Virus record (IMG/VR): IMGVR_UViG_3300044825_001003
Coordinates: 1-64,000 of that record
Source: a virus
Direction: 5' to 3' (one strand)
DNA: 64,000 bases
Position 1 is the first letter of the stretch; every line of letters begins with the position of its first letter. The position numbers and the translations under genes were made by a program. This document shows positions 4,086 through 30,694 of the stretch, in pieces. Below the pieces are notes generated by a model, which saw nothing but the letters and a program-made list of their open reading frames with translations, had not been told where the DNA came from and did not search any database.

Positions 4086-4093
4086 AATACTCC

Positions 4094-6131: not shown

Positions 6132-6374
6132 CTATTCGTTAAAGATCCAGGCCCATTTTATGCCGGGATTCTGGTTGAGTTCGTCGATCCAAGGATTGCC
6201 GCCGACGAAGTGTGCCGATGTTGTTCCTTGGATATCGTGTCCAACAAGTATAGCCCTTCCATCTGGATAAAGCAATACCACGCCAGCAGGAACCGATTGA
6301 TCCGGTCCCCAGGGGAGCGAAGAGACTGGATTGAACTGAAGATTTAACAGTCGCTCTTGCAGTCTTTCGCTCAC
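6132..6374 (-). CDS. Hypothetical protein (paralogue of 12095..12388)
   Basis: Shared M.ER...P...LPW...P.G.V...G...G...WAW pattern. Confidence 0.7.
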   Translation of the reverse strand: MSERLQERLLNLQFNPVSSLPWGPDQSVPAGVVLLYPDGRAILVGHDIQGTTSAHFVGGNPWIDELNQNPGIKWAWIFNE

Positions 6375-6375
6375 G

Positions 6376-6822: not shown

Positions 6823-7103
6823 TACAGCCCCCTCAGTTCGTCTTCAGTTTCATCTGCGGTAAGCAGCACGGCTGGCCCGCTGATTCCAATGCCGCTGACT
6901 GCGGTTGCCGTCCTATTGTATTCGGTGTATGAATTTGAGTACATGATTAGTCTTTTCTTGTTTTGCTTGTCTATGAATAAACTTTTTTGTACAAGATGAG
7001 GAAATGTTCCGAGTGCTATCTGCATCTGATAGTTGCGAGTACCGTTGTCGATGGATAGGTCGATGTGCGTAATGCCTTGATTTGCCCCAATAATTGTTGC
7101 CAT
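6822..7103 (-). CDS. Hypothetical protein (DUF3846-like C-terminus, tentative)
   Basis: YNRTATAV...ISGPAVLL; coupled to neighbours. Confidence 0.6.
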   Translation of the reverse strand: MATIIGANQGITHIDLSIDNGTRNYQMQIALGTFPHLVQKSLFIDKQNKKRLIMYSNSYTEYNRTATAVSGIGISGPAVLLTADETEDELRGL

Positions 7104-7105
7104 GA

Positions 7106-8062: not shown

Positions 8063-8077
8063 TGATTAGTCTCCTTG

Positions 8078-9418: not shown

Positions 9419-9440
9419 TCTCGTTCTCCTTTGGTTTGTG

Positions 9441-9569
9441 CTACTTTCTTCTCCAGCACAGTAGAATATAGGATACACCAGTCGCCATGATCGGCGCAAG
9501 CGTAGGCCAGTTCCTCACAGAAAAAACCCCATGCACAGGGCAGAAAAGGAATTCATAAACGTCGTTCAT
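9441..9569 (-). CDS. Small hypothetical protein
   Basis: MNDVYEFLFCPVHG...; RBS GGAG; coupled to the upstream stop. Confidence 0.5.
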   Translation of the reverse strand: MNDVYEFLFCPVHGVFSVRNWPTLAPIMATGVSYILLCWRRK

Positions 9570-9571
9570 GG

Positions 9572-9808
9572 TTAAGTCTCCCGTTCGATCTTTGTAATGG
9601 TTCCGTCGTCCTCGACGTAGATGTTGGTCCGGAGGAGAACGTCGAGCGCTCCGTCCGTAAACAGACTGGCCTTGATTCTGCTGCCGGGGTATCGCCTTTT
9701 CGCTTCCGGCTGGCATCCAGTGAAGGTGTCGCCAACTTGCAAGGATGCCGCCCACATTTTTCCCTGCATTAAGGCCGTGTGCAATTCGATAATCTCGTTA
9801 TCAACCAT
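9572..9808 (-). CDS. Hypothetical protein
   Basis: MVDNEIIELH...; fills the operon gap. Confidence 0.6.
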   Translation of the reverse strand: MVDNEIIELHTALMQGKMWAASLQVGDTFTGCQPEAKRRYPGSRIKASLFTDGALDVLLRTNIYVEDDGTITKIERET

Positions 9809-9810
9809 GA

Positions 9811-10713
9811 TTAGAACTCCACGTCGATTAGCCCGCAATTAAAGACGGGCAGGTTAAGGGGTTGCCAGCACTCGCGGATCACCTGCGGGCGGTCGTCGAA
9901 TACGGCAAAGACGTTGTACTTATCCTTGATATGCGTCTCGTACATCTCACGCTTTACCTCGCTATCACGCCGCTTGTTGTCCTTGCCGCGCATGACGAGG
10001 CTGTAGTTAAGCGCACTGAACCCGCAGGTTAAATCCAGGGCTTTCTTGGTATCGCTAATGCAATTCTCTGATCTCCCGGTGAAAAAGAAAACCATGAATC
10101 CATACCGATGCGTTAAGGCTATGATGGTAGAAAGTACATGAAGTCTAACGTCATCGCCCAATACTTTGGTTTCGTCGTATGGATTCCGGTCTTTTGGATC
10201 GAATAGAGTTCCATCCAGATCGCAGATAATACATTCGGGTAGTTTATTAGGCTTGAAATTCGGCAGCGTTCGCCGTTCTCGCCCTTCCTTGTGCTTCTTC
10301 CACATCTTACGGATGACCTCCTCTCCTACTTGCTCGTGGCCAGTGCGGAGGGAATCGCGCCGGATACACTCGTTAACCGGGACCATCGTGAAGTCCACTA
10401 GCTCGACCTCGTACCCCAGGGATTTGCACAGTTCCACTGTCTTGTCGAGCGTGTCACGGTTCATGTGGGTATTGTCCACGATGATGTCCCACTCGACCTT
10501 AGAGAACGCCGTTATCATCCCCTCGCGGAGCCGCCTGACCGTATTCTCTACATCCTTATTCCACTCGCGGTTACCGCGTTCTTCGTAAATCTCGTTACGG
10601 ATGGAGTCGTTGTTAACGATGCGGAATTCGGGGATACCCAGTTCTCGAACCTTGTTCCGCGCCCATGTGGACTTCCCACTGGCGGGAAGTCCTACTGTGA
10701 TGTATGCTTTCAT
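9811..10713 (-). CDS. pseT: Polynucleotide 5'-kinase / 3'-phosphatase (T4 PseT-like)
   Basis: GLPASGKST P-loop, DNT, then a HAD domain with CDLDGTL, TGR and FDDRPQV. Confidence 0.92.
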   Translation of the reverse strand: MKAYITVGLPASGKSTWARNKVRELGIPEFRIVNNDSIRNEIYEERGNREWNKDVENTVRRLREGMITAFSKVEWDIIVDNTHMNRDTLDKTVELCKSLGYEVELVDFTMVPVNECIRRDSLRTGHEQVGEEVIRKMWKKHKEGRERRTLPNFKPNKLPECIICDLDGTLFDPKDRNPYDETKVLGDDVRLHVLSTIIALTHRYGFMVFFFTGRSENCISDTKKALDLTCGFSALNYSLVMRGKDNKRRDSEVKREMYETHIKDKYNVFAVFDDRPQVIRECWQPLNLPVFNCGLIDVEF

Positions 10714-10715
10714 GG

Positions 10716-10928
10716 TTACTTAATCCTCCAGATCCTTACTTCTTTATCGCTCACCGTGCGGATCTTTAGCTTAAACCCGCACCGCCTCGCTACCTCTCCA
10801 GCCGATGTGTGAACGGTTTGTCGCACCTTGAACTCGGTTACAACTAGGCAGTCACCTACCTCTAGCTTCCTCACTTCGGAGGCTATACTCGGCTGAGGCG
10901 TTAAGTCTTTTCTAATCTCTAGCTTCAT
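10716..10928 (-). CDS. Small basic hypothetical protein (possibly DNA-binding)
   Basis: LEVGD...VRIWRIK pattern; RBS AAAGGAGAAC. Confidence 0.7.
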   Translation of the reverse strand: MKLEIRKDLTPQPSIASEVRKLEVGDCLVVTEFKVRQTVHTSAGEVARRCGFKLKIRTVSDKEVRIWRIK

Positions 10929-10940
10929 CGTGTTCTCCTT

Positions 10941-11183
10941 TTACTGAAACTTCAACAGTTCCCATTCCTTTCTGGTGAAGCTCTCGCTAACCTTGGTTAG
11001 CAGTCCCCACTTCTTCGCCGTCACTCTGGCGGCTTCAAGCGCGGCGATATCGTGGTTATCCTCACGGCTGACCTCTCGGTTGACCTTTAAGGTAAACCGC
11101 TGCTTGCCGTTAATGTAGACGGCGATGCAATCCAGCTTGCGCTTCCGGTTCCGCTCGGTGGTTCTGATTTTAATGGTTTCCAT
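10941..11183 (-). CDS. Small basic hypothetical protein
   Basis: Strong RBS AAAGGAGAA. Confidence 0.7.
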   Translation of the reverse strand: METIKIRTTERNRKRKLDCIAVYINGKQRFTLKVNREVSREDNHDIAALEAARVTAKKWGLLTKVSESFTRKEWELLKFQ

Positions 11184-11280
11184 TGTGGTTAATTCTCCTT
11201 TGATTTATCGACGTAGTAATCCACGTCCCCCAGTCCACTAGTCCAACGGATTGGATGAATGGACTGGAAGGGAGGACTGG

Positions 11281-11727
11281 TTATCTCTTAATCGCGTCTC
11301 TCATTTCCCGCATCTGTTTCAGGGCGTCTGATACCGCTCCGATAGCCTGATCGAGAGTGCGTTTAACCTCCTCGACCTCTGTGCCGATTACCGTAGAGCA
11401 GATATCAAGGTCTGATACGGTGCAGTCTAGGTTAACAGCAGCCTTTGTTGCTCTATCTATCGCCGTCTGTAGAAACACTCGCTCTTTCGAGTGTGCCGCA
11501 GCTCCTTCTTCTAGGGACGGAGCAATTAACCTCTTCTCGTTCGCGTCTGAAAGGAGATCCCCCACGGCCTCCGTGAAGGAATCACACATATATGTCATGC
11601 CCTCCAGGTTCTCGTACTCTACATCCTTGCCGTCTTCTATTGGTCCGAAGACAGTACCAATAAATCGGTTACGAAGGTAGACTTGGACGAATTGATTTCC
11701 CTTGTCGTATTTGTAGGTGATCTTCAT
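11281..11727 (-). CDS. Hypothetical protein
   Basis: ORF with RBS AAGGGA. Confidence 0.65.
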   Translation of the reverse strand: MKITYKYDKGNQFVQVYLRNRFIGTVFGPIEDGKDVEYENLEGMTYMCDSFTEAVGDLLSDANEKRLIAPSLEEGAAAHSKERVFLQTAIDRATKAAVNLDCTVSDLDICSTVIGTEVEEVKRTLDQAIGAVSDALKQMREMRDAIKR

Positions 11728-11891
11728 GGTTAGTCCCTTGTAGTCCAGGCCGCGAACCCCGCCGTCATGATGACGCCCAGGATTCCCAGTCTGGTAGCTT
11801 CCGGTGTGCCGCTGGTTACTCCAGCGACAATTATGGACATTGAGGCGACTAGTCCTGCCGCGCAGATAAGGGCTGTCTCGTTAGTCATTGG

Positions 11892-12098
11892 CTAGTTCTC
11901 CCTTGTGTATGCTGGGATAAACCCCCAGCGGTTAGTGTGTACGGGGTTAACTTCGGTTAGCTTGGGGTTAGCGCCGAAGGCGTAATTGCCAAACAGGTCC
12001 ATTGGTCGGGGAGGTGCCGAATGTTGGCACATATAGAACACCTCCCCGTTAATCATGCAGGGATGCTGAGGGCAGCAGAGCCGATTAGGCCAGCTCAT
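11892..12098 (-). CDS. Small hypothetical protein
   Basis: ATGA overlap with 12095..12388. Confidence 0.55.
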   Translation of the reverse strand: MSWPNRLCCPQHPCMINGEVFYMCQHSAPPRPMDLFGNYAFGANPKLTEVNPVHTNRWGFIPAYTREN

Positions 12099-12388
12099 CG
12101 CCCTAGTTCCTCGTTAAGCCAAGCCCAGTTTGTAGCGTCCGTCCATGGGAGGCGCGGCTCGTATTTGCCGTTTTCGCCGTATACGCTGTAATTGTCGCTA
12201 CAGCATCCGCAGCCGTTAGTTTGCTCCTCTAAGTTGGTGCCGATCACAACTACACCCCCGGTTTCGCGCCGGATAACCAACCCGATAGGCAAGCTAAACC
12301 ACGGCCAGTCATCATGTTTGATCCACGGCAGCGTCTCGATTGGTTTCCAGTTCAAAGAATTGGCCAGTCTTTTGAATCGCTCGTTCAT
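12095..12388 (-). CDS. Hypothetical protein (paralogue of 6132..6374)
   Basis: LNWKPIETLPW...LPIGLVI...GGVVVIG...WAWLNE; RBS GGAGG. Confidence 0.7.
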   Translation of the reverse strand: MNERFKRLANSLNWKPIETLPWIKHDDWPWFSLPIGLVIRRETGGVVVIGTNLEEQTNGCGCCSDNYSVYGENGKYEPRLPWTDATNWAWLNEELGR

Positions 12389-12404
12389 TCATCCTCCATG
12401 TAGA

Positions 12405-12433
12405 ATGTTAACAGTTTGCGCGGTTATTGTCAA
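12405..12433 (-). promoter_or_regulatory. sigma70-like early promoter
   Basis: TTGACA-17 nt-TAACAT with an extended TG. Confidence 0.7.
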
Positions 12434-12495
12434 TGCCGATATTCATTTTGAACGTAGAATTATTCGGCGGTTACTGTTAAATCAGTAGTGGGTGG

Positions 12496-13194
12496 TTAGC
12501 CCACTACTTCCAGGCAATTGTGGCAGAGCAGGGCGTGGGAGTATGCCTGAGATTGGAATAGCGGCTCCAATTGCCCGCACCAGTCGCAATAGCTGGTTAC
12601 GGCGCGGTCATAGTCGGTTATGGCGGGCGTGATCTTGGAGGGGGTGTAGTGGTACGTTTTGCGGCGGATTAGAGAATCCTCATTACTGAACCATATACCC
12701 TTGCGCCACAGGCCGCTCGATTCGTTAATGATGGTTAGCGCACCGCTGGCTGCGAGGAAGGTGAGTTTATTCCGTCTGCCTATTTGCCGTCCGATAGCGG
12801 CAGAGAATGATTTGCTGGTAATGTCGCGTTCGGTTACGTTGGCCAGTCGCAACTCGCGGGCGAAGTGCCATGTATCAGACATGGCGGGGTTATCGCATTT
12901 AATGTCCAATACCCCGTTATGCGCCATGAACAGGCGGCGGTTAATGCGGAAGGGGTGACAGTTGTTCGTGTTAACCGCGCCATGCGTAGCCCAGCGGGTG
13001 TGTACGACATGGGGATGCTCTACCGCTTCCTGATAGGCCAGTTTGAGCTTGGATAGGGTTAGCCCGCGCCGGACGGTTACCGCGCCGTTACGGGCGAACA
13101 TGACGCCCCAACCATCCGGGTTGTTGTCATAGGCGGTTTCGAGAATGTCGGGGGAGACGGCGCTCCCCTCCGGTGATGCGATGATAAGGCACAT
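12496..13194 (-). CDS. Class II (Ntn) glutamine amidotransferase, copy B
   Basis: MCLII, NPDGWG, HTRWATHG, NCHPF, AHNGV, SDTWHF, WFSN; C-terminal CxxC..CxxC. Confidence 0.92.
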   Translation of the reverse strand: MCLIIASPEGSAVSPDILETAYDNNPDGWGVMFARNGAVTVRRGLTLSKLKLAYQEAVEHPHVVHTRWATHGAVNTNNCHPFRINRRLFMAHNGVLDIKCDNPAMSDTWHFARELRLANVTERDITSKSFSAAIGRQIGRRNKLTFLAASGALTIINESSGLWRKGIWFSNEDSLIRRKTYHYTPSKITPAITDYDRAVTSYCDWCGQLEPLFQSQAYSHALLCHNCLEVVG

Positions 13195-13196
13195 GG

Positions 13197-14438
13197 TTAG
13201 TTGTCCTCTCCGGTGTTTTCCGCGCCGATAAAGGCGTTCAGATTAGGATACTGCTTACGGTTATCGGCGACGAATTTGATGAAATCCTCCCCGCGCAACT
13301 CCCGATAGCTCCGGTCGCGGGTAAATTCGATGGTCGCCTTTACGAATTCGAGATTTTTGAGGATGCGATCTTTGCGGGTGTTACCCCGGAAGATACGGAA
13401 TTCGATGGTATCGTCGTTTTGCAGGTTAATCGCTTCATAGCGATCATAACTCCGGCCACACTTGCCCATCTTCTTATCGCTCTTCAATCTGGCCCAGCTT
13501 TCACAGTCGCGTTGCGCTACGCGCTTTACCAGCTCCCAGTTTTCCGGCGCGTTAATGAATACCACGATCTTTTGAATATGCATCGGCGTCAATGCGGAGC
13601 GGTTAACATGGACGTGAAAGCCACATCGACCGGAAGTATGGGACGATACGCCCTTGATATTCTCGCGCCAATCGTTAGCCCACAGGGATTTAATGGACTC
13701 CCAATCATGGGGATGCGTCACAATCTCGAATCCCCGCCCAATGCTCCCATCTTCTTTTAGATAGACGTGATCTTCGCCCAGGTTATCCAACGCTTCTTGG
13801 GCGGCGTGATCGAGGTTACGGTCGCTTGCTACGTTAACCTCTAGCTCGCATCCAAAATAAAGCACGCCGTTAGCAGCGCGGTTAGAGCTGGTTTTACCGT
13901 GCCGGAAGAATTCAAGGTCCGGAGAATATCCGTAATTGTGGACTAATCGGCTAGAGTTATTGCCATAGCAATCCTGACAATACGCACCACCGTCATCGTC
14001 GCATAGGACGTCATCTCCGGGCACCAGGATACCGCAATCTTCGCAGCGACAATAATTATCTCGGCAGCTCTCGCATATTTCGCCGCCGTTATGTTCACCG
14101 CAGCTATGGCGGTTATGGCACAATTCGGTACAATCGACGCAGGTAAACGTATTTTCGCGCCAGCAGCGGTTACAGCCGATGTTAGTACGCCCCCAGCCGC
14201 CCCCGGCCATCCGTAGTTCAATCTCACCGTTATAGCTAAGGTCATCTTCCGGCACGTCACGCCCGCATGACGGACATTCGACGCGCTTAGGTTCCCTATC
14301 CGCGCAATCCTCGCAGATATCCAGGGCGGCAACTAGGTCGCCGTTAGCATCTTCTATTACCGGATCGCCATAGTCGGCATCGTGCATCGTGCCATGATTA
14401 ACGATATGCTCGTGGCAGCAAACGCAGGTTATCGGCAT
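13197..14438 (-). CDS. Amidoligase (COOH-NH2 ligase) with N-terminal Zn-ribbon repeats, copy B
   Basis: FGCELEV, KEDGSIGRGFEIVTHP, CGFHVHV, DRYEAIN, TIEFRIFRG. Confidence 0.9.
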   Translation of the reverse strand: MPITCVCCHEHIVNHGTMHDADYGDPVIEDANGDLVAALDICEDCADREPKRVECPSCGRDVPEDDLSYNGEIELRMAGGGWGRTNIGCNRCWRENTFTCVDCTELCHNRHSCGEHNGGEICESCRDNYCRCEDCGILVPGDDVLCDDDGGAYCQDCYGNNSSRLVHNYGYSPDLEFFRHGKTSSNRAANGVLYFGCELEVNVASDRNLDHAAQEALDNLGEDHVYLKEDGSIGRGFEIVTHPHDWESIKSLWANDWRENIKGVSSHTSGRCGFHVHVNRSALTPMHIQKIVVFINAPENWELVKRVAQRDCESWARLKSDKKMGKCGRSYDRYEAINLQNDDTIEFRIFRGNTRKDRILKNLEFVKATIEFTRDRSYRELRGEDFIKFVADNRKQYPNLNAFIGAENTGEDN

Positions 14439-14471
14439 TGTCGGTTAGCTCCTTTATTCGGTTATTCGGGT

Positions 14472-14524
14472 TAATGCAACCGTCCCGGCGCACTATCGGG
14501 TTAATGCGCCGGATGGTAGCACTA
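14472..14524 (-). other. Conserved intergenic RNA hairpin, copy 1
   Basis: Minus strand TAGTGCTACCATCCGGCGCATTA-loop-TAGTGCGCCGGGACGGTTGCATTA; related copy at 15669-15722. Confidence 0.6.
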
Positions 14525-14528
14525 GCGG

Positions 14529-14705
14529 TTATGTGTGAATATATCCGTCTGGTTCCACGCCCCAAAACATCCCGGCGTGGGTAAACGTATAGCACCCCAT
14601 GAGAGGGGAAAAAGTGAGGCGCGATAGGATATCGGCAGCCACGGGCGGATCGAACCGCTTTATAATTGCGTCGGTTACGGGTGCGGGGATTAAATTCTGG
14701 TTCAT
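14529..14705 (-). CDS. Small hypothetical protein (58 aa, below the ORF-track cutoff)
   Basis: MNQNLIPAPVTDAIIKRF...AGMFWGVEPDGYIHT; RBS AAAGGA and a promoter upstream. Confidence 0.7.
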   Translation of the reverse strand: MNQNLIPAPVTDAIIKRFDPPVAADILSRLTFSPLMGCYTFTHAGMFWGVEPDGYIHT

Positions 14706-14724
14706 TGGGTTATTCCTTTATGGG

Positions 14725-14753
14725 ATTATGCGCCGTTATGGGCGGGATTGCAA
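14725..14753 (-). promoter_or_regulatory. sigma70-like early promoter
   Basis: TTGCAA-17 nt-CATAAT. Confidence 0.65.
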
Positions 14754-14854
14754 GGGTTTAACGGTTACCGGGGACGCCGGTTATGGCGCGATTGGTTAAC
14801 CCGGCAGCGGCTATTTTGGCCGCTGCCAGGTTCCCGCCAGGTTTTGCGCCGGTG

Positions 14855-15397
14855 CTATTCGTATCGCGGGCGGCGTTCGGGGGTGAATTCCGGCGGGGTG
14901 TCGCGGTTAATGCGCGCGACATATACGCCGTCAGATAGAACGGATGAAATATCACGCTTCCCTTCATTTGGCCCCCATAGGCGGCTATCCAGCTTGTTGT
15001 TAAGGCGGGTTGTATACTGGCGGGCGGCGCGATGCGTTCGGAACCGTCGCAGGGATCGGGCTAGTTGCGCGGTGTTGTACCACCAACCGCCTTCTTCCCC
15101 TCCCCCGTAGGCCATGTCTTCCAGGTAGACTGACACGATATAGCGGCCCGTGCCGGGGATAGCCCGAAGGCGGGCGATGCGGGCAGCTTCCCGTTCGGCG
15201 GCAGCGCGGCGTTCGGTTTCGAGTTGCGCGGCGGCGGCGGCGCGGGCATCCAGTAATGCGCGGCGGGCTTCCCCGCTATCGAACATGGCGGCGATATTCT
15301 CGCAAGTATCCAGTTCTTTAACCCATTGGGCCGTGCTGTAATAGCGGGTGCGGAGCCGTTCTAGGATGCTAACGGCGCGTTCGTAGGTGATAGGCAT
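14855..15397 (-). CDS. Early hypothetical protein
   Basis: C-terminal VSVYLEDMAYGGGEEGGWWY motif; coupled to the upstream gene. Confidence 0.7.
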   Translation of the reverse strand: MPITYERAVSILERLRTRYYSTAQWVKELDTCENIAAMFDSGEARRALLDARAAAAAQLETERRAAAEREAARIARLRAIPGTGRYIVSVYLEDMAYGGGEEGGWWYNTAQLARSLRRFRTHRAARQYTTRLNNKLDSRLWGPNEGKRDISSVLSDGVYVARINRDTPPEFTPERRPRYE

Positions 15398-15639
15398 TAT
15401 TCGGCCCCCGGTAGCGCCGTAAAAACATATCCGGTAGCCGTGAACCCGCCGTTAAGTTCTGGTAGCGTGATCCAATTGGCGGAGGCGTACATACGAGCGG
15501 CCTCCAGATGATTGGCCGCTATCCCTAGCTCGTAATTCCAGGGATAATACCGCCGCTTATATCCGGCGGCGGATACGCTGATCCGGGACGGCAAGGTGTT
15601 GGTTGCGCCGTGATAGCGCGTGATAATAGCAGAGTACAT
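15397..15639 (-). CDS. Early hypothetical protein
   Basis: AIITRYHGATNTLPSRI; RBS GGAGAA. Confidence 0.7.
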   Translation of the reverse strand: MYSAIITRYHGATNTLPSRISVSAAGYKRRYYPWNYELGIAANHLEAARMYASANWITLPELNGGFTATGYVFTALPGAE

Positions 15640-15668
15640 GATAATTCTCCGTGGTTTGGTTTGAGGCG

Positions 15669-15722
15669 TAATGCTGCCGCCCCGTTACCCCGCCCGCCGC
15701 GAGATACCGGATGGAAGCACTA
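15669..15722 (-). other. Conserved intergenic RNA hairpin, copy 2
   Basis: Minus strand TAGTGCTTCCATCCGG...ACGGGGCGGCAGCATTA. Confidence 0.55.
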
Positions 15723-15727
15723 CTGAT

Positions 15728-16099
15728 TTAAGAGTAGTTGCCGCGTTCTACGATATCGCCCCAGCAACCGACCTTATAATCCCCGTTGACGCGCATAAGG
15801 GTAACGGCGTAAGTATCGCCCGCGTTGACGTATTCAATCGACGGGGAACGCTTCCCCCGTCCGGCGGGGATATATTCGACGCCGTATCCCCCGATTATTT
15901 CGGAAGCGATAGATAGTTTAGTAGTGCATAACTCTAGCGGATGGTAGCAGAATTCGTACCACGATTTAGTGAACGGATACTTTCCGCTATCCAGGGCGGC
16001 TTCCAGGGCGTCTCGTTTGGTAATGCTGAGAATGGCGTGCAGTTCGGCGGCGCGTTCGGCGGCGATTGTTTCGAGTTGCTTGATGCTGGGAATCTTCAT
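15728..16099 (-). CDS. Early hypothetical protein
   Basis: GYGVEYI...YVNAGDTYAVT...WGDIVE; RBS AAGGA. Confidence 0.72.
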   Translation of the reverse strand: MKIPSIKQLETIAAERAAELHAILSITKRDALEAALDSGKYPFTKSWYEFCYHPLELCTTKLSIASEIIGGYGVEYIPAGRGKRSPSIEYVNAGDTYAVTLMRVNGDYKVGCWGDIVERGNYS

Positions 16100-16178
16100 G
16101 CTAGTTTTCCTTAGTTGGTTTGAGGCGGTAAACCGCTCAGTCTAGCCCGCGATTGAATAACGGGCTAACCTGAGAAGA

Positions 16179-16475
16179 CTAGTCGCCGTACTGGGCGGTA
16201 TCGAAGCTAATATCCTCAAAATACATACTCTGGATGTAGGCTTCCGCCGCTTCCGCCGTATCGAACGGGCCGGACCAATCGGTACAGTCGAGATATCCAG
16301 GGGCGGATAGGCGGGCGAAATATCCCGATTTAAGGCGCGCGTCGAATTTATCGCACCCCATAATTTTAGCGGCTTCCTCCCAGCCGAAATAGCGGGAATC
16401 TAGCATATCGCCATTGTTTTCGCTCACCCAAAAATGTCCCCGGATAATTTCCGGCTTCATGAAGCTATCAGACAT
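16179..16475 (-). CDS. Early hypothetical protein
   Basis: GYFARLSAPGYLDCTDWSGPF; RBS GGAGGTG. Confidence 0.72.
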   Translation of the reverse strand: MSDSFMKPEIIRGHFWVSENNGDMLDSRYFGWEEAAKIMGCDKFDARLKSGYFARLSAPGYLDCTDWSGPFDTAEAAEAYIQSMYFEDISFDTAQYGD

Positions 16476-16622
16476 TACAGCACCTCCCTGATGACGATAA
16501 GAGCGGCGACGATAACTGCAAGGCAGATACCGTCATAAATCATGTTCAATAGATTCTTCATTGTCTCGTATCCTTTACTCTGTCGTTTTTACTTTACTGC
16601 TACGCGCCCCGGCGGGCGGGGG

Positions 16623-16871
16623 CTAGGCCCCCGGCTCCGTGATGGGCTTAAATGCGTTTACAGTGGGGATTGATTCGGGATCAATGCCCATACGCTTGAC
16701 TGCTTTCTCAGCCGCGCTATGGGCGGCAGTATCCCGTAGATAGGCTAACGCGCTGCCACTTTCGATAGCACCGTAGCGTTTCTCCCAGCAGAGTAACGTG
16801 GCAAGGCGGGCACGTTTCGCGCGTTCTTTTGGAACGCTGATAGCAAACGTGTAGTTCAGGTATTCCTTCAT
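16623..16871 (-). CDS. Early hypothetical protein
   Basis: RBS GGAGA; 82 aa. Confidence 0.6.
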   Translation of the reverse strand: MKEYLNYTFAISVPKERAKRARLATLLCWEKRYGAIESGSALAYLRDTAAHSAAEKAVKRMGIDPESIPTVNAFKPITEPGA

Positions 16872-16935
16872 GTTTTTTCTCCAAATGATTGATTGTAAAC
16901 AAGTTTAGCCCCCCGGCAAGCCGGGAGGCTGGAAA

Positions 16936-17157
16936 CTACTGCGGTAATACGCGCGGCTGGTGCGGCATCATCCAGCCGCGCAGGTCCAGTCCACAAGTCC
17001 AGGCGGCCGCATAAGCGGCCCAAAACGTACAACGGACACGGGAACGGCGAAGAGCGCGGCCCGCTGCGTAAACAGGCTCTTCATTCCGGTAGATATCGGC
17101 CTTAATCGCGGCAACCCGCGCGCGGCGGAAAGATTTGGCGTTCAGTGTGTTTGTCAT
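16936..17157 (-). CDS. First gene of the left arm, probably leaderless
   Basis: TTGACT-16 nt-TATTCT-6 nt-ATG (17157). Confidence 0.6.
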   Translation of the reverse strand: MTNTLNAKSFRRARVAAIKADIYRNEEPVYAAGRALRRSRVRCTFWAAYAAAWTCGLDLRGWMMPHQPRVLPQ

Positions 17158-20804: not shown

Positions 20805-21041
20805 ATGAAGCAGCGGCGGATCGAGATGAAGTTCCCTAAAGGGGAATCGGCCTGCATGAGTCTTTCTTATGTCATCACGGCGCTATCCGCGGTCCATGAT
20901 CTCATGGTCCTGGCTGGGGTCAACCCGAATGATGCCATGATCGAGGGCGAGATTGCCATTTGCTACATGTCGCCACTGACGGAAGAGGAGAAAGAGAATG
21001 AGCCAGGAGACGCTGGAGTTCATCAACCGATCAGCGGCTGA
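20805..21041 (+). CDS. Hypothetical protein
   Basis: RBS AAAGGAGAA. Confidence 0.55.
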   Translation: MKQRRIEMKFPKGESACMSLSYVITALSAVHDLMVLAGVNPNDAMIEGEIAICYMSPLTEEEKENEPGDAGVHQPISG

Positions 21042-21180
21042 TAGATTTGTTGATAACGTGATTAACAACAAGGCGCGGCCTGATGACGACGAGAAGCTGA
21101 AAGGCTATCTCTTCTACCTACTTCAGTGCGCTACTGAGCGGGGGTTTACGGAGGGATTTATTGAAGGGAGGAAGGAGTGA
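20998..21180 (+). CDS. Hypothetical protein
   Basis: Operonic ORF with an RBS. Confidence 0.55.
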   Translation: MSQETLEFINRSAADRFVDNVINNKARPDDDEKLKGYLFYLLQCATERGFTEGFIEGRKE

Positions 21181-21383
21181 TGCGATACTGGACCTACGTT
21201 GAACCGGGAGAGGATGGCAAGCCGAACTACGTTACCGTGTCGGAAGAAGAGATTCGCCGGGATTACTGGCCGGTCTGGGTTCGGCTAATGGAAAACGCTG
21301 GTGGATGGTCGCCAGATCTTTGCATTGAAGATTGCATAGATGACTGGTCAACGATTCATGGCGCATGGAAGGTGGAGGAATGA
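21177..21383 (+). CDS. Hypothetical Trp-rich protein
   Basis: SEEEIRRDYW...CIDDWSTIHGAW; RBS AAGGAG. Confidence 0.65.
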   Translation: MMRYWTYVEPGEDGKPNYVTVSEEEIRRDYWPVWVRLMENAGGWSPDLCIEDCIDDWSTIHGAWKVEE

Positions 21384-21760
21384 AAGTAATCATTGCTGGA
21401 TCACGGACTTATCGCGGCGGTGCCGAGGGCGTTCATGTCGCGGTGAAAGAGTCTGGGTTTGACGTGACAACTGTTATTTCGGGAGTTGCCCGTGGCGCGG
21501 ATCTTGCTGGAGAAGACTGGGCATGGGCTAAGGGTATTCCGATTGAGCGATATCCCGCCGACTGGAAGAAGCACGGTCGATCTGCCGGGATGATCCGCAA
21601 CAACCAGATGGCCGAAGCCGCCGATGCTCTCATCGCCCTCTGGGACGGAACAAGTCGCGGCACTCTCCACATGATCTCGAAGATGAAGCTCGACGGAAAA
21701 CCCGTCTTCGTCTATTGGGATAAGAAGTGGTTTGAAGCCTTGACTGAACCCTTTGAATAA
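21380..21760 (+). CDS. SLOG-family (YspA/DUF2493-like) protein
   Basis: KVIIAGSR, VISGVARGAD, YPADWKKHGRSAGMIRNNQM, LWDGTSRGT. Confidence 0.88.
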   Translation: MKVIIAGSRTYRGGAEGVHVAVKESGFDVTTVISGVARGADLAGEDWAWAKGIPIERYPADWKKHGRSAGMIRNNQMAEAADALIALWDGTSRGTLHMISKMKLDGKPVFVYWDKKWFEALTEPFE

Positions 21761-21787
21761 CTGTACAATTGATCGAAAGGAGAACAA

Positions 21788-22006
21788 ATGCCTGTAGTTT
21801 CAACATTTCACATTTCTAGCGAAGGTGAGAATATGGTCACCGTTGGGTTCGAAGGAGGTAAGGTAAACTTTCTTCAGACTCGCGAAAACGGCGACACGAG
21901 CGTTATCCAGATAAACGAGGATATGGCCCGCTTGTTGGTTGACTGCCTCTATGCTGGCATCGGTCTTATCCGAAATGACTTCCGTTCGTCTTTTGATAAG
22001 GAATAA
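21788..22006 (+). CDS. Hypothetical protein
   Basis: RBS CGAAAGGAGAAC. Confidence 0.65.
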   Translation: MPVVSTFHISSEGENMVTVGFEGGKVNFLQTRENGDTSVIQINEDMARLLVDCLYAGIGLIRNDFRSSFDKE

Positions 22007-22008
22007 CA

Positions 22009-22209
22009 ATGTTCAAAAACCTGAATCTTGAATTGAAGAATGAACTCGACAAGCAAGAAGTAAAGATCCTAATGGGCCAGGATGGGACGGTCCATCTGAC
22101 GTTTGGATCTAATACCATGTCCATGAATATTGGGTTCGTTAATGAACTGATCGACGCGCTAACTATCGTCGCAAATGCCCGTCTTCGCATGGGACTGGGG
22201 GAAGAATGA
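22009..22209 (+). CDS. Hypothetical protein
   Basis: RBS AAGGA; operonic. Confidence 0.6.
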   Translation: MFKNLNLELKNELDKQEVKILMGQDGTVHLTFGSNTMSMNIGFVNELIDALTIVANARLRMGLGEE

Positions 22210-22382
22210 AGATACGTCTATATACTGTCGTGGCGGCTCAAACCACTTCTTCGCTAGTGAGGGATGTTAACTCCTACATTCAGGATGGCTACCAACCTTA
22301 CGGCGATATGGTAAAAGATCCAACCTCAACTATGTCGTGGTTCTATCAACCGATGGTAAAGTACGAGGAGAATGAAAAGTGA
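22206..22382 (+). CDS. DUF1737-like small protein (58 aa)
   Basis: YTVV...LVRDVNSYIQDGYQPYG...FYQPMVK; ATGA/GTGA coupling. Confidence 0.65.
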   Translation: MKIRLYTVVAAQTTSSLVRDVNSYIQDGYQPYGDMVKDPTSTMSWFYQPMVKYEENEK

Positions 22383-22579
22383 GCAATAGTCAAAACGTAA
22401 CCGTCAGCTTTCCGTTTCTTGGGATGTTGACCCTTTTGTTTATCGGCCTGAAGCTAACCAACCAGATCTATTGGTCTTGGGTTTGGGTTCTGGCTCCCAT
22501 GTGGGCTCCGATAGCACTACTGTTTCTAGTGCTTGCTATCGTGCTTATCGCTAAGCTCGTTGTGGCAATCTTTGAATAG
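22379..22579 (+). CDS. Small two-helix membrane protein
   Basis: LTLLFIGLKLTNQIYWSWVWVLAPMW. Confidence 0.75.
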   Translation: MSNSQNVTVSFPFLGMLTLLFIGLKLTNQIYWSWVWVLAPMWAPIALLFLVLAIVLIAKLVVAIFE

Positions 22580-22676
22580 CCTTATTAAAGGGAAAGCCCC
22601 TATCCTTTAATAACGACTGCGGTAATTAAAGGATGCTTTAGTTGCAAGAAAAATAATCTTGTGATAGATTAAAAGA

Positions 22677-22736
22677 GTACACAAACGGTCATAGCAGAAA
22701 AGCCCTCGACTCCCCTCCCTCCGGTCGAGGGCTTTT
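22677..22736 (+). ncRNA. Candidate sRNA 1 with a C-rich anti-SD loop
   Basis: TTGCAA(22642)-17 nt-TAGATT(22665) promoter, no ORF, 13-bp stem with loop TCCCCTCCCTCCG, ending TTTT. Confidence 0.55.
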
Positions 22737-22757
22737 GAATTGAGGTAGAATCAAAAC

Positions 22758-22925
22758 ATGGAACAAATCAGTTGCCACACTTGCAAGTACGCCGCAAAGC
22801 TGGCCTCAGCAACCGAGGCCTACTACATATGCTTCCCGATGAATCAGCGCTCAATGGATGTGTCGCAGAAGGGAGCGCCAAACTGGTGCCCTATCTTGCA
22901 ACAGAAAGAGGCGGCGAGTGAGTGA
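22758..22925 (+). CDS. Small 4-Cys protein (55 aa), leaderless
   Basis: MEQISCHTCKY...YICFP...APNWCPIL; TAGAAT-6 nt-ATG. Confidence 0.65.
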   Translation: MEQISCHTCKYAAKLASATEAYYICFPMNQRSMDVSQKGAPNWCPILQQKEAASE

Positions 22926-23136
22926 TTATTCAATTGATACCGACCCTCGCTTTATGGACAAGACCGCAAAGGTGGCACTAGGCAAGCAGGTCAAGGTAAG
23001 CTCGTGCTATAACTGTCCTTTTTATCAGAAAAGCGAACTGAAGGATTGGGAGTTCTGTCATTACGCCGGAAAAGACCTGACCTTGCGGATCGGACAGAAT
23101 TTTCCTATCTGGTGCCCGCTCGAAACCGCCCAATGA
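22918..23136 (+). CDS. Small 4-Cys protein
   Basis: SSCYNCPF...FCHY...FPIWCPL; GTG start. Confidence 0.65.
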   Translation: MSDYSIDTDPRFMDKTAKVALGKQVKVSSCYNCPFYQKSELKDWEFCHYAGKDLTLRIGQNFPIWCPLETAQ

Positions 23137-23354
23137 TACTGCAACTAAACCCTCCATTGCCCATGACTACCTCAAAAGGGCAGGGTTTTGCGCACTTTTT
23201 GATCGACTACAGCCAGGAGCACGACCTGATCTGGGTGGTTTTTATGAAAGATACCGGCCAATGCTGGTCTTTTCCCAATAAAGACGTCAGATTGGACGCA
23301 AATTTCACTCTCGGAACCGGGAAAGACCCTTGGATGTCGTCAAAAACTGACTAA
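23133..23354 (+). CDS. Hypothetical protein
   Basis: MILQLNPPLP...GFAHFLIDYSQEHDLIWVVF; ATGA coupling. Confidence 0.7.
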   Translation: MILQLNPPLPMTTSKGQGFAHFLIDYSQEHDLIWVVFMKDTGQCWSFPNKDVRLDANFTLGTGKDPWMSSKTD

Positions 23355-23363
23355 GGAGACTGA

Positions 23364-23717
23364 ATGTTGAAGATTATTGTGAATAAACCCTCCGCAGGAG
23401 GGGAGCGTGGTCATCTTTGTGCTACTTGCAAGTACTCTGATCGAGTTTCAGGCCCTGGCTGGGAACGAAATCGCTGTACTAGCTTCGGTGAAATCACTCG
23501 TCAAGTCACAGATTGCTCGTGTTATAAGACTCAGGACGAATGCAGGACTGTTCAGGATGCTCCAAACGCCATTCTGAACGCCGCGAAGTACTTTGTCGAG
23601 TACAATGGTGAGTTTTTCTGCTTGAGCTACTCGCAATTCGATGCTTTCGATGGTACTTATGACGACGAAAAGCGGGAAAAGATGATGAGAAAGTGGGGTT
23701 TCCTTCGAGATGAATAA
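23364..23717 (+). CDS. Cys-containing hypothetical protein
   Basis: LCATCKYS...C...DCSCY; RBS AAGGAG. Confidence 0.65.
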   Translation: MLKIIVNKPSAGGERGHLCATCKYSDRVSGPGWERNRCTSFGEITRQVTDCSCYKTQDECRTVQDAPNAILNAAKYFVEYNGEFFCLSYSQFDAFDGTYDDEKREKMMRKWGFLRDE

Positions 23718-23916
23718 GAATCAGACCAAAATCATGGCCGTGATCTACAAAAACCAGAATTCTGGCATCACCCCAGACGATATCGCCAAGCAAGCACGGC
23801 TTTCTAAGGAACTTGTCTCCATGGAATTGGACGCTTTAGAGAAAATCAACGCTATCATGCCCACTCCAGGCTGTCTTTATAAGCCATCTACAGGAAAATT
23901 AAAGATGTTTGCTTGA
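23710..23916 (+). CDS. Small winged-helix protein
   Basis: ITPDDIAKQARLSKELVSMELDALEKINAI, resembling the DprA C-terminal wHTH. Confidence 0.65.
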   Translation: MNKNQTKIMAVIYKNQNSGITPDDIAKQARLSKELVSMELDALEKINAIMPTPGCLYKPSTGKLKMFA

Positions 23917-23947
23917 CGGAGGCTGCTTTTCTTGCTATATTGAAAGT

Positions 23948-24010
23948 GTTAGTTCTCCTTTCGTTTGGTTGGAAGCGGGCGCGGCCTTAAAAGCCACGTC
24001 CGCTTTTTTT
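23948..24010 (+). ncRNA. Candidate sRNA 2 with a 5' anti-Shine-Dalgarno seed
   Basis: TTGACG(23913)-17 nt-TATATT(23936) with extended TG; transcript GTTAGTTCTCCTTTCGTTTGGTTGG followed by a GC hairpin and T7 terminator; no ORF. Confidence 0.72.
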
Positions 24011-24063
24011 ATGCCTAAGTAAAAGATTGAGATTGACTTACCCGCACTGTTAATATTTAATTG

Positions 24064-24342
24064 ATGCCGGTAGACTTCTCCTACATTAAAGATCCAGGAG
24101 CAACGCTAGATTATTCGTTCGATTGGACGGACTGGCTGGGCACCGGAGAGCTTTTGTCTACGGCCACATGGACTGTTCCCGCTGGGCTGACAAAGGTATC
24201 GGAGATAAACAGCGCTTACGTGGCGACTTGTAGGATTAGCGGCGGCGTAGCAGGTGTAACATACACCGTTACATGTCAAGTTACTACCGATTTGGGAGAG
24301 ATTGACCGCAGAAGTCTACAGCTTGTGGTACAAAACCGATAA
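24064..24342 (+). CDS. Small virion/fibre adaptor protein
   Basis: KDPGATLDYSFDWTDWL...ISGG..G.TYTVTC; precedes the fibre gene. Confidence 0.7.
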   Translation: MPVDFSYIKDPGATLDYSFDWTDWLGTGELLSTATWTVPAGLTKVSEINSAYVATCRISGGVAGVTYTVTCQVTTDLGEIDRRSLQLVVQNR

Positions 24343-24343
24343 T

Positions 24344-24502
24344 ATGCAGAATGTAAACGCTCAAATTGAAAGCGCTGAGATTGAAGCCGTAATCATACGT
24401 GCTGACGGAACAAGAGTTAACCTAGGAACAATCGCCTACTACCACCGGAATCCATTGAAGCGATTGATTTACTGGCTAAAGACAAGGATTAAAAGAGGCT
24501 AG
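24344..24502 (+). CDS. Small hypothetical protein
   Basis: IEAVIIRADGTRVNLG. Confidence 0.5.
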   Translation: MQNVNAQIESAEIEAVIIRADGTRVNLGTIAYYHRNPLKRLIYWLKTRIKRG

Positions 24503-24504
24503 AC

Positions 24505-24885
24505 ATGGCAACGGTTTTAACAAACGTCGGCAAGGCGATTACTACAGGGCGAGTCAAGGGTGTCGGATCTGGCGCTGGCTCGGCTGAGCCAAATTACGTA
24601 GCTTGGGGTGTCGGTGCTGGCACCGCCGCCGCGACCGACACTACCCTATTCACCGAGACTGGATCGCGGGTGGCCGGAACCTCCACGCAGCAAACCACAT
24701 CCGTAACCAACGATACCTATCAGGTAGTTGGCACTCTTACGGCTGGTGGTTCTTTGACAATTACCAACGCTGGGCTTTTCGATGCTGCATCTAGCGGCAA
24801 CCTTTATATGAAGGGCGACTTTACCGGCATTGCCCTTACTCTCAACGAGAGCATCCAATTCACGATGAAGGTTCAGTACAGCTAA
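24505..24885 (+). CDS. Tail-fibre-associated structural protein
   Basis: VLTNVGK...YVAWGVG...ITNAGLFDAASSGNL, resembling a fibre N-terminal collar. Confidence 0.75.
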   Translation: MATVLTNVGKAITTGRVKGVGSGAGSAEPNYVAWGVGAGTAAATDTTLFTETGSRVAGTSTQQTTSVTNDTYQVVGTLTAGGSLTITNAGLFDAASSGNLYMKGDFTGIALTLNESIQFTMKVQYS

Positions 24886-24905
24886 GCGTTTAAGCGGAGA
24901 TAAAG

Positions 24906-27900
24906 ATGACGTTCTATAACTTAGTAAAAGTAGCGACTCTAACGACTGGGACTGGAACGGTTTCTCTTGGCTCCGCAGTTCCCGGCTTTATTACATTCTC
25001 TCAAGCCGGTGTTGTAAACGGATCTACGGTATCCTACGCAATCGAGGATGGGTTCAATCGAGAGGCCGGTACTGGTGTTTACAACTCATCGACTGGCACC
25101 CTTACCAGGAATGTCGTCACATCGACGAACTCGAATAACCCGATTGTCCTTTCTGGCAACGCAGTTGTTTTCATTACGCCACTAGCGGCGGATCTGAACT
25201 CGGCTACTACCGCCACTGCGAACACCCTGGCTCTCCGGGACGGTAGTGGTGTTTTAACGGCATCCGGCTTTAGCAACGGTACAAATAGCGCGGTTCTTGG
25301 TGGAAACAACCTAACAACAGCCGGGGCTGTCCCCTATGTGTCGGCAAGTGGTGTCCTGAATCAAGATGCCACGGCTCTGTTTTGGGATGCAGCGAACAAT
25401 CGGTTGGGGGTGGGGACGGCTAGCCCGGCGTTTCCTTTTGTCGTGAGTGATGGCTCCTCTACTGTAGAGGCTAATGCGGCTGGAGGGGCGGCGTTTCTTC
25501 AGTCTGGGAATTCTCCTTTGATTATCGGGAGCAGGAACACCGGGTTTGAGCTTCGCTTCCGCACAGAGGGAACCGAGGGAATGCGCCTTACCGCCACTAC
25601 TCGCAACCTCCTCATCGGTACTTCTACTGATGATGGGGCAAATAGACTGCAAGTATCGGGCAGCACCGGAACTGTTGGCGCTATTGTTCAAAACACCGTA
25701 AGCGGCGGGACGGCAAGGCTCACCCTTTCCAGTCAGTTTGCAAATAGCTACACCAACTCCTACATCGACTACAACCACGGAGCGCAGGCTCTAAAGTTTG
25801 TTTCCGGCAGATCGCTTCTCGGCTATCTCTCGTTCTTCACCTTGGATGTAACTTCCACAGAACAAGAGAGGATGCGACTGACCAACCCCGGCAACCTCCT
25901 CATCGGCACTACCACCGACTCCAACTTCAAGCTCGACGTAGGTTCCAGTGGAAGTGCTGGCACTTTCCGCGTCTACGACCAAGCCAGTCCTACCGGCGTG
26001 ACGAAACTGATAGTCCGGTCCGGGGCGGGGCAGGGTACGACAAACCTGACGGAGTGGCAGAATGTCAGCGGAACGCTTCTTTCCAGTATCTCTTCAAACG
26101 GGGGTTTTCGGGTTGGTAATGTAGTAACTCAAGGGGGTTTTTTTGATGTCCTTAATAATGCCAACTCTACCGTTCTAGGTCTGTGGGTCCGTAACGCAGA
26201 TTCTGGATCATCGGCTCAGGCTGGAATAGCTCTTAATTCGTTTGGCAATAGCTGGGGCATTGGGACTGGGAGTGCTGCTAAAAACTCCAATTCCCTTGTG
26301 TTTGAATTGGATGTCACTGCTCCTTCGGAGAAGATGCGGCTAACGACATCCGCTATCCTTTCCCTGCCGAATGCGGGCGTATACGGGTTCTCTTCAACTA
26401 CGTCATCTGGCGGGACCCTCGACCTCTCCCTCTCCCGCGCCTCTGCGGGTGTTCTTCAGGTAGGGGATGGGGGGAGTAATGCGAATGGGCAGATTAACGC
26501 AATCCGTTCTATTCTCACAGATACGGCTGCATCTGGAAACGTGCTGACTGTTTACAATAGCAACTTATCAAATCCAGGAGAACACATACGACTTGGATTT
26601 AATGACAATTATCGCTGGTCTTTGTCCAGGAACATCTCTTCTGGCAACCTTACATTTAGGTATCAAAATGTCGCCGTTAGCGCGACCCTAAATAGCGTTA
26701 TGGAGTTGGCTGAATCCGGCACCCTATCGCTGTACAACCAGACCCCCACTACCGGCGTAACCCGTGCCGTTATCCGCGCCGGGGCGGGGCAGAGTACAAA
26801 TAACCTGACGGAGTGGCAGAACGCGAGTGCGACTGTACTGTCCGGCGTTGCTTCTAACGGTAGCTTTTTTGTTCAAAATTTCGGCGGGCTATTTAACGCT
26901 GGCGGAAGTGCTGGGTTTTACGTTGGCTCAAATAGCTTTGCGATTCGTACTAATACCACCGATGACCGGCTTGTTGTCCAGTCTACGGGCATTGTGTCTT
27001 TCGGTGGGTCTACCGCCTCCTTCCCGGCGCTGAAGCGGTCTAGCACAACCCTAGAAGTAAGACTAGCTGATGACTCCGCTCTAACGGCCATCTCTGCCGG
27101 TCAGTCTACGTTTGATGGGCTAACGGTAGGGCGCGGTGCGGGGTCAGTTACAGATAACACTGCGGTTGGCCTAAACGCTCTTCAAGCTAACACAACCGGA
27201 ACCCAGAACTCTGCTTTTGGCAGGGGAGCTTTATTTACAAACTCAACTGGAAACTTCAATACGGCAATTGGGAGATTCTCTCTTTACTCCAATACGAGCG
27301 GTGGTGGGAATGTCGCCTTGGGTGGCGGTTCGCTATACACCAATACGACTGGTTCAGATAATACAGCAGGCGGCGTTAACGCTCTGTTTCTCAATCTAAC
27401 AGGGAGCAATAACACAGTATTTGGGACCAGCTCGATGTATAGCAATAGCAGTGGTTTGGATAACGCTGCTTTTGGGAATGGCTGTTTGATTTCAAACACA
27501 ACTGGATCAAGGAATGTAGCGGTTGGACTTGAAGCTGGATACACAGCCACTGCTGCCAACGCCAATACAACTGGTTCTAATAATGTGTGGATCGGATATC
27601 GGTCCGGCCCCGCATCCACTGTACAGCGGACCAACTCTGTAGCTATCGGATATCAAGCTCTGGTTGGTGCCGACAATGCTGGCGTCCTCGGTACTGCTGG
27701 GATGAAGTGGTCTGTCGGTGGTCAGACGGTGCCTAGTGCAACGCTACACGTTGAAAATACAAGCGCTTCGGTGACCGAAGCTACCAAATTGGTAGTAAAG
27801 GCCGCGACCAACCAGAGCACGACACCATTACAAGACTGGCAGAACAGTTCTGGTACTCAATTAGCTTTAGTTAGCAGCGTTGGTGCTATTAGGTCTGATA

Positions 27901-30255: not shown

Positions 30256-30284
30256 TTGACACGTCGCTGGTAGATTTGTAGAAT
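30256..30284 (+). promoter_or_regulatory. Near-consensus sigma70 promoter
   Basis: TTGACA-17 nt-TAGAAT, 8 nt before ATG 30293. Confidence 0.75.
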
Positions 30285-30292
30285 AGTAAAAC

Positions 30293-30694
30293 ATGGCGCA
30301 AACAGGATACATCTTCATTAGGAACGGGACTCCTATCCCTGAGAACAACGAGTATTATCGGCTAAACGGAGAGATGAAAAAGGCGGAAAAAACTGGAATC
30401 CGCCCACTTCATGCATCTATTTACATGAAATGGGAAGATTACATCCGCCCTTCTAGCGACCCCGTGTGCATTGAAATGGAAGACTATTTTGGAAACCTTA
30501 AAATCAGAATTGACGCTAATGATGACGGCATTATGACCGTGGCGTTTCCCAATGCTGAGATCATCGAGACTGAAGACGGGCCCATGATGGGCTTTCGTTG
30601 TGATGTAAATGCGGCCATGTGGATTGGCGGCGCGATTGTCAGCGCTGCTTTTGAATATGCAACTGGCGGTGGAGAAGAGGACGACGATGAATGA
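30293..30694 (+). CDS. Hypothetical protein
   Basis: ORF downstream of the consensus promoter. Confidence 0.65.
   Translation: MAQTGYIFIRNGTPIPENNEYYRLNGEMKKAEKTGIRPLHASIYMKWEDYIRPSSDPVCIEMEDYFGNLKIRIDANDDGIMTVAFPNAEIIETEDGPMMGFRCDVNAAMWIGGAIVSAAFEYATGGGEEDDDE

Follow-up and report, generated by a model that had tools for sequence, protein, structure and literature searches.

Genomic context of the putative small-RNA unit

The window, by which we mean the whole stretch of DNA analysed, covers the first 64 kb of the 102,748-bp IMG/VR virus record G000. This record is rated complete and belongs to an uncultured freshwater phage. According to our own gene calls, the minus-strand arm of the genome (1–17 kb and 79–102.7 kb) carries ParB, two amidoligases and the replication genes. 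The plus-strand arm (17.3–79 kb) carries methylases, an endolysin-like gene and, as far as 23.9 kb, a series of small proteins. Next comes the structural block, with a Gp77-like adaptor at 24064, a Gp80-like fibre protein, a 1354-aa fibre, a terminase at 37613 and a P22-like portal at 40777. The blastn search of cultured phages with positions 23400–24400 gave no match. Using tblastn with the portal, we obtained only matches of about 24% identity, which do not point to a host.

The small-RNA unit fills the 147-nt gap between p68, a winged-helix gene, and p92, the first gene of the structural block (Table 1). The p68 protein is a possible regulator. The 117-aa Cys-rich gene located at 23364–23717 (+) (CxxC...C, DCSC) is an indel with no family match and no IMG/VR relatives. 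It is absent from the relatives L093 and G001 and from the X9 and X10 contigs, which join 23365 directly to 23711. Small paralogous Cys-rich proteins with a CxxCxY...WCP motif are encoded at 22758, 22918 and 23046/23163 (22758–23354, +); they have homologues in G001 and L093 and no assigned family.

Table 1. Positions of the small-RNA unit, its neighbours and related features in G000.
Feature	Position	Strand	Description
p68, upstream neighbour	23710–23916	+	68-aa winged-helix protein, MarR/HTH_24-like; Pfam matches sub-threshold, E 1.7e-4 and 9e-4
Promoter P1	23913–23941	+	-35 TTGACG (23913–23918), 17-nt spacer, extended -10 TGcTATATT (TG at 23933–23934, TATATT at 23936–23941)
Predicted unpaired 5' region, GUUAGUUCUCCUUUCGUUUGGUUGG	23948–23972	+	From the fold; start placed from the -10
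Core anti-SD motif UUCUCCUUU	23953–23961	+	Complement of AAAGGAGAA; invariant in four loci
Intrinsic terminator	23971–24010	+	Hairpin, GC core 23975–24003, then U7 at 24004–24010
Second promoter P2	24027–24066	+	TTGAGA, 18-nt spacer, TGtTAATAT; 7 nt before the ATG at 24064
p92, downstream neighbour	24064–24342	+	Gp77-like fibre-tail adaptor; Pfam PF23148, E 9e-26
Sister promoter-to-terminator unit	22642–22736	+	Counterparts at L093 5745–5838 and L082 2140–2245
Sigma-70-like promoters of predicted leaderless first cistrons	24027–24066, 30256–30295, 49730–49769

Anatomy of the unit

The initial annotation had described a stand-alone small RNA here, made from a TTGACG-17-TATATT promoter with an extended TG, about 63 nt without an ORF, and an intrinsic terminator. 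The promoter scan recovered this promoter at the same place. P1 is a near-consensus sigma-70-type site and the best one in 22.5–25.5 kb (score 10/12); its -35 element overlaps the stop codon of p68. Judging from the position of the -10 element, the RNA is predicted to start at G23948. The first ~23 nt of the predicted 63-nt RNA (23948–24010) are essentially open and are followed by the hairpin and U7. The fold has an energy of -23 kcal/mol (z = -2.6 vs shuffles), and its strong GC-core hairpin with the U-run bears out the terminator. Coding potential is likewise absent, since no reading frame is common to the four homologous loci described below. Two plus-strand ORFs of 37 and 25 aa were rejected: they start upstream of the predicted transcription start and are broken in L093, where a 1-nt indel disrupts the 37-aa frame. 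Thus, all four loci have an own promoter, a Rho-independent terminator and no coding potential, as is characteristic of the small RNAs that occlude Shine–Dalgarno (SD) sequences. Transcripts reading in from the upstream operon would stop at the same terminator and carry the motif in their 3' UTR.

We scanned G000 and G001 for strong sigma-70-like promoters that have a hairpin with a T-rich tail 25–130 nt further downstream. This recovered the G000 unit and its syntenic G001 counterpart, and clean units were found nowhere else in these genomes. The third match combines P2 with a weak hairpin that lies within p92, and was taken as spurious. At gathering thresholds, neither ar14/cuckoo, C4 and RsaE nor any other Rfam family matched anywhere in the window. 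Within 23700–24200, at E up to 10, only sub-threshold matches appeared (L20_leader, 21 bits vs 58.7; rli61, 20 vs 50), and these were driven by the terminator and the U-tail.

Conservation of the unit in related phages

Relatives of the locus were found via the flanking adaptor protein. These are L082, which is part of the 97-kb IMG/VR record G001, and the metagenome contigs L093 and L092; together with G000 this gives four loci only, two of which carry nearly the same version. G001 is collinear with G000 and shares 68–80% DNA identity with it over most conserved genes. A search of related phages for the promoter-motif-terminator unit had been proposed earlier, and we found the unit in syntenic position in all three relatives. 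The gene order is kept in each of them: the p68 homologue lies directly upstream of the unit, and the adaptor gene (71–78% identity for p92) follows it. The flanking coding sequences are 65–88% identical at the DNA level among the four phages.

The promoter shows a characteristic pattern of conservation. The -35 element is TTGACG, TTGACC or CTGACC, the -10 region TGCTATA[T/A]T is invariant, and the spacer is exactly 17 nt in 4/4 loci although its sequence differs. In L093, L092 and G001, a hairpin with a T-run follows 60–75 nt after the promoter. Between G000 and L093 there are no changes at all over 23943–23971, while the upstream coding sequence p68 is 88% identical and the downstream one 65%. 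The hairpin differs by seven changes, among them a compensatory pair (G23975C/C24003G) and, at 23999, the replacement of G.U by G-C.

The 9-mer UUCUCCUUU is invariant in 4/4 loci. In G000, L093 and L092 it lies near the RNA 5' end. The remainder of the G001 RNA is unalignable, and UUCUCCUUU makes up most of the 11-nt loop of its terminator hairpin. The probability that two unrelated RNAs of ~65 nt have any 9-mer in common is ~0.01 (~3500 window pairs x 4^-9), and the one found in common here is precisely the anti-SD. The energy needed to open UUCUCCUUU is 0–1.5 kcal/mol in all four RNAs, as compared with medians of 6–9 kcal/mol for other stretches of these RNAs. Thus, the RNA has an accessible conserved seed complementary to initiation regions, which is a further feature of SD-occluding small RNAs. 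Since the promoter, the terminator and the 9-mer are kept while the other sequence turns over, there is good evidence that selection acts on the exposed anti-SD motif. Very likely, the unit is a real RNA gene selected to display this motif.

Contigs from DNA runs also cover the unit: X4 has ~96% identity, X9 has 5 differences in 23711–24146, and X8 is identical to G000 over 23937–24087. No RNA run is among the sequencing runs listed as matching 21000–27000. The exact 25-mer scan of IMG/VR gave no match, and protein searches with p117 and p68 gave no relatives there. The 80 loci reached via the p126 protein represent a widespread fibre cassette without the small-RNA unit, and L083–L086 and L094–L097 are unrelated high-GC or marine phages with no synteny. 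Degenerate scans for the -10 element plus the motif in IMG/VR and for a 17-mer seed in 596 Gb of prokaryote genomes returned chance-level counts and no homologues.

The same data bear on whether the locus has a dedicated function. The hairpin could simply be the terminator of the 17.3–23.9 kb operon, which it would end in any case, accompanied by a fortuitous promoter and an SD-like relic of a lost minus-strand leader. Indeed, the 25 nt read on the minus strand resemble an early-gene leader (CAAACC..AAAGGAGAAC..UAAC) that lacks just a start codon. However, four diverged phages have kept the promoter elements, the spacer length and the 9-mer, the last of these in G001 even though the sequence around it differs. 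The preservation of UUCUCCUUU in an otherwise unalignable RNA argues against a decayed minus-strand leader. Besides, a compact phage genome, in which 5.5% of the DNA is intergenic, would not be expected to retain such a relic. In agreement with the initial annotation, which had denied that the motif is a minus-strand ribosome-binding site, no ATG, GTG or TTG lies at a usable distance behind it. We rejected a minus-strand small ORF for this reason, as no start codon is present there in any of the four loci. Thus, we consider a locus without a dedicated function very improbable.

Sister unit at 22.6 kb

Another promoter-to-terminator unit lies 1.2 kb upstream. In G000 it consists of the promoter TTGCAA-17-TAGATT with TG, about 60 nt of sequence, and a 13–14-bp hairpin with the 13-nt pyrimidine-rich loop UCCCCUCCCUCCG, followed by U4. 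The loop in L093 is CCCCCUCCUUCCG. The syntenic unit of G001 has the TGCTATATT promoter, single-stranded GAUCACCUCCUUUC and the hairpin loop UUUCCUCCUUU. The loops are of the CCUCC type in G000, L093 and G001, and GAUCACCUCCUUUC is a 14-nt copy of the 16S rRNA 3'-tail sequence. Thus, the lineage keeps two predicted promoter-to-terminator RNAs with anti-SD-type motifs within 1.3 kb. Just upstream of the sister unit there is an insertion hot spot, with 3.1 kb extra in the X4 contig and ~3.2 kb in L093.

Complementarity to ribosome-binding sites

The motif UUCUCCUUU is the exact complement of the preferred A-rich SD sequence of the phage and matches 10–15 true ribosome-binding sites. It has CUCCUUU in common with the 16S rRNA 3' tail. 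The sequence AAAGGAGAAC occurs in 6 copies in the 102.7-kb genome with 0.2 expected, a 30-fold excess. Five of these copies are ribosome-binding sites at true gene starts, and the single orphan is the small-RNA locus.

The initial annotation had listed five pairings between the 5' part of the RNA and leaders of the phage. All of them proved exact base by base: 15/16 at 9423–9438, 18/19 with two G:U at 11188–11206, 12/12 at 21774–21785, and 10/10 each at 5420–5429 and 10932–10941. To rank the leaders, we computed duplexes of the 25-nt 5' region with all 135 of them using RNAduplex. The leaders of genes 99316, 11888, 21788, 9418, 66329, 11183 and 14438 came out on top, with -27 to -22 kcal/mol; these energies ignore target mRNA structure and chaperones. 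The leader of gene 99316, which ranks first, begins right after a tRNA-like 3' end, so part of its pairing involves a tRNA acceptor end. The adjoining 464-nt gap at 99317–99780 (minus strand) of G000 contains tRNA-like 3' ends (GGTTCGATTCC...CCA).

Seed pairing is stronger with minus-arm than with plus-arm leaders (mean -14.9 vs -12.1 kcal/mol, p = 3e-4). The generic 16S-tail control separates the arms weakly (p = 0.055). To assess the contribution of the flanks, we counted the leaders at or below -20 kcal/mol. There were 15, as compared with 7.8 +/- 3.7 when the 9-mer was kept and its flanks were shuffled (p ~0.05). With random flanks around the 9-mer, the count of strong duplexes gave p ~0.015. 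According to these two controls, the flanks beyond UUCUCCUUU add something to pairing, and the effect is marginal. Part of the gain comes from their G/U-rich composition, which suits the minus-arm leaders of the CA-rich and CUAAC type.

The long matches (15/16 and 18/19) turned out to be peculiar to G000. In G001, the orthologues of the best G000 target leaders have diverged and lack extended complementarity. The co-variation of the small RNA and the leaders between G000 and G001 had the expected direction and was not significant, and neither RNA paired clearly better with the leaders of its own genome. Thus, between these two phages we found neither conserved target sites nor seed/target co-variation, another hallmark of SD-occluding small RNAs.

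The conservation of the short motif alone, and not of the extended leader complementarity, could also mean that the RNA does not pair with mRNA. In that case, the exposed CU-rich motifs would mimic the 16S 3' tail and bind or titrate a protein with affinity for this tail or for pyrimidine-rich single strands, such as ribosomal protein S1 or S21, a nuclease or toxin acting on the 16S 3' end, or a chaperone. A protein decoy of this kind would fit the unusually large terminator loops that display the motif and the 14-nt copy of the 16S tail in the G001 sister RNA. However, we have no candidate binding protein. Moreover, UUCUCC of the motif departs from CACCUCC of the 16S tail exactly where complementarity to the AAAGGAGAA(C) sites of the phage is gained. 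Therefore, a decoy role seems distinctly unlikely to us, and pairing with messages remains the preferred reading of the motif.

SD usage in the two arms and predicted leaderless structural operons

We compared the leaders of the minus arm (1–17000 and 79000–102700 in G000) with those of the structural genes (24000–79000), with the gene starts of G000 and G001 taken from a simple home-made caller that rewards SDs. A motif complement of at least 7 nt was found in 15/63 minus-arm leaders and in 2/53 structural-gene leaders of G000 (p = 0.003). The corresponding values for G001 are 18/63 and 4/57 (p = 0.004). The share of leaders with GGAG is 57% in the minus arm and 21% in the structural genes of G000, as compared with 56% and 28% in G001. 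The effect is reproducible in both phages and is a class effect that distinguishes the replication/early arm from the structural genes. Some late genes, such as 43468 and 48667, would likewise be reached by a generic anti-SD, which upholds a caveat of the initial annotation. The words CAAACCAA and CUAACC recur in minus-arm leaders just before the ATG.

The structural operons starting at 24064, 30293 and 49767 have a -10 box 7–8 nt before the ATG and no SD. Upstream of p92, this is the -10 of P2. The short distance from the -10 to the ATG, together with the absence of an SD on the first structural gene, predicts a leaderless mRNA. The 7-nt geometry is kept before the p92 homologue in L093, L092 and G001.

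The position of P2 weighs against the main alternative explanation of the unit, in which it controls the late operon. P1 would then serve as the late promoter and yield the short RNA as a terminated leader, like the 6S RNA of lambda PR'-tR'. A phage factor would enable read-through of the hairpin, and the CU-rich motif would be a boxA/nut-like antitermination site rather than a seed acting in trans. Such an arrangement accords with the location of the unit, right where the structural block begins and directly after a small DNA-binding-type gene. Besides, boxA elements are CU-rich single strands. Upstream of its late genes, lambda likewise makes a short terminated RNA constitutively, and Q extends it (bioRxiv 10.1101/2024.10.31.621285). 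However, P2 is conserved in 4/4 loci, and its placement would let the first structural mRNA begin at the ATG without any need for read-through from P1. The motif lies 5' of the hairpin in three loci and in the terminator loop in G001, unlike the fixed linear layout of nut-like sites. We found no Q/antiterminator Pfam family in p117, p68 and the other upstream small proteins, and the promoter is not accompanied by the Q-family gene that marks lambdoid PR'-tR'/Q units. No alternative anti-terminator fold was predicted. In addition, the sister unit with a like motif lies 1.2 kb upstream, away from the head of the structural block. Taken together, control of the late operon appears rather unlikely. 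If this reading is nevertheless right, the unit is an ordinary regulatory junction.

Proposed function

It is about an even chance, judging from the sequences, that the unit makes a conserved non-coding RNA masking A-rich SD sites in trans, with a generic conserved part and the strongest effect on the SD-rich early/replication arm. We infer the production of this RNA, its action in trans, its targets and its timing from the features described above. A strong host-type promoter would drive the independent transcription of an RNA of ~60–70 nt, and a terminator of its own would end it. The exposed pyrimidine motif UUCUCCUUU would be the functional part of this RNA. By base-pairing in trans with ribosome-binding sites, the RNA would occlude them and perhaps expose the mRNA to decay; thus, it probably blocks translation starts. 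The messages with the longest matches, most of them from the replication/early arm on the minus strand, would be affected most, and the RNA may act on host mRNAs whose SDs are similar. The structural operons would be largely spared owing to SD-less or leaderless first genes and weak SDs.

The interpretation given in the initial annotation thus holds in part. The conservation in four loci agrees with a stand-alone non-coding promoter-to-terminator RNA with an exposed anti-SD at its 5' end. The specific early-gene regulon lacks support: the extended pairing is borderline (p ~0.05), is not kept in the orthologous leaders of G001 and shows no co-variation. Nor is there support for the proposed shut-off at the middle/late transition. 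P1 resembles a strong constitutive host-type promoter and could fire from the start of infection. Titrating many SDs effectively would need a very abundant RNA.

A broader scheme would take in the sister unit. The UUCUCCUUU RNA and the 22.6-kb sister RNA with its CCUCC loops may both mimic the mRNA-docking tail of 16S rRNA and mask host and early phage SDs. Together with the leaderless structural operons (24064, 30293 and 49767), they would then form an RNA-based switch from SD-dependent to SD-independent translation. We regard this scheme as unlikely. Should the conserved RNA act as a generic anti-SD, its place next to a sister RNA of like kind, in a genome with strong early SDs and leaderless late operons, would speak for RNA-based control of translation initiation at a global level during infection.

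Comparison with known systems

Occlusion of ribosome-binding sites by small RNAs is well established in bacteria. To our knowledge, the targets of previously described phage small RNAs are either a single specific message (c4) or a small number of host genes (lambda LPR1). Searching the literature on phage anti-SD small RNAs, we found nothing equivalent to this unit. If our reading is true, a conserved phage RNA whose sole invariant feature is a generic anti-SD would differ from the described phage small RNAs.

In Firmicutes, small RNAs with C-rich motifs (the 3' hairpins of S. aureus RNAIII, RsaE/RoxS) pair with SDs through UCCC/CCC motifs and block initiation. Some of these motifs are located in a terminator hairpin loop; the RNAs are chromosomal regulators with defined regulons. 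The layout of the terminator loop in G001 is alike, with no sequence or structural homology to the phage RNA. In phage T4, the endoribonuclease RegB and the repressor RegA inactivate early messages at SD/initiation regions. This logic is the same as in the proposed role of the phage RNA, but RegB and RegA are proteins.

The lambda 6S RNA is a 194-nt Hfq-bound RNA, whose function is reported as unknown and which is extended by Q antitermination (bioRxiv 10.1101/2024.10.31.621285). Both it and the RNA described here are short, have a strong promoter and a terminator and lie immediately before late/structural genes. The phage unit differs in that a separate conserved promoter follows the terminator and that no Q-like gene was found.

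The c4 antisense RNA of phages P1 and P7 blocks translation around one ribosome-binding site via loop-displayed sequences (PMC12197685). It is likewise a phage-encoded small RNA that pairs around a ribosome-binding site (PMC12197685). However, c4 targets a message of its own operon by unique complementarity, whereas the phage RNA conserves only a generic SD complement.

The cuckoo/alpha-r14 small RNAs of Alphaproteobacteria (RSs0680/CcsR, SmelC397/NfeR1) consist of 2–4 adjacent hairpins with CCUCCUCCC in each loop (PMC4615179). They also have a short invariant exposed anti-SD-like pyrimidine motif in variable sequence; a genome contains several of them, and in many cases a terminator forms their end (PMC4615179). 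In contrast, the phage RNA is phage-borne and has one hairpin and the motif UUCUCCUUU, which in 3/4 loci is located at a single-stranded 5' end. Thus, it does not have the 2–4 hairpins with CCUCCUCCC loops by which cuckoo RNAs are defined, and the likeness is one of logic. In this respect, the cuckoo/alpha-r14 RNAs are the closest known to the phage RNA, and among phages the closest is c4 of P1/P7.
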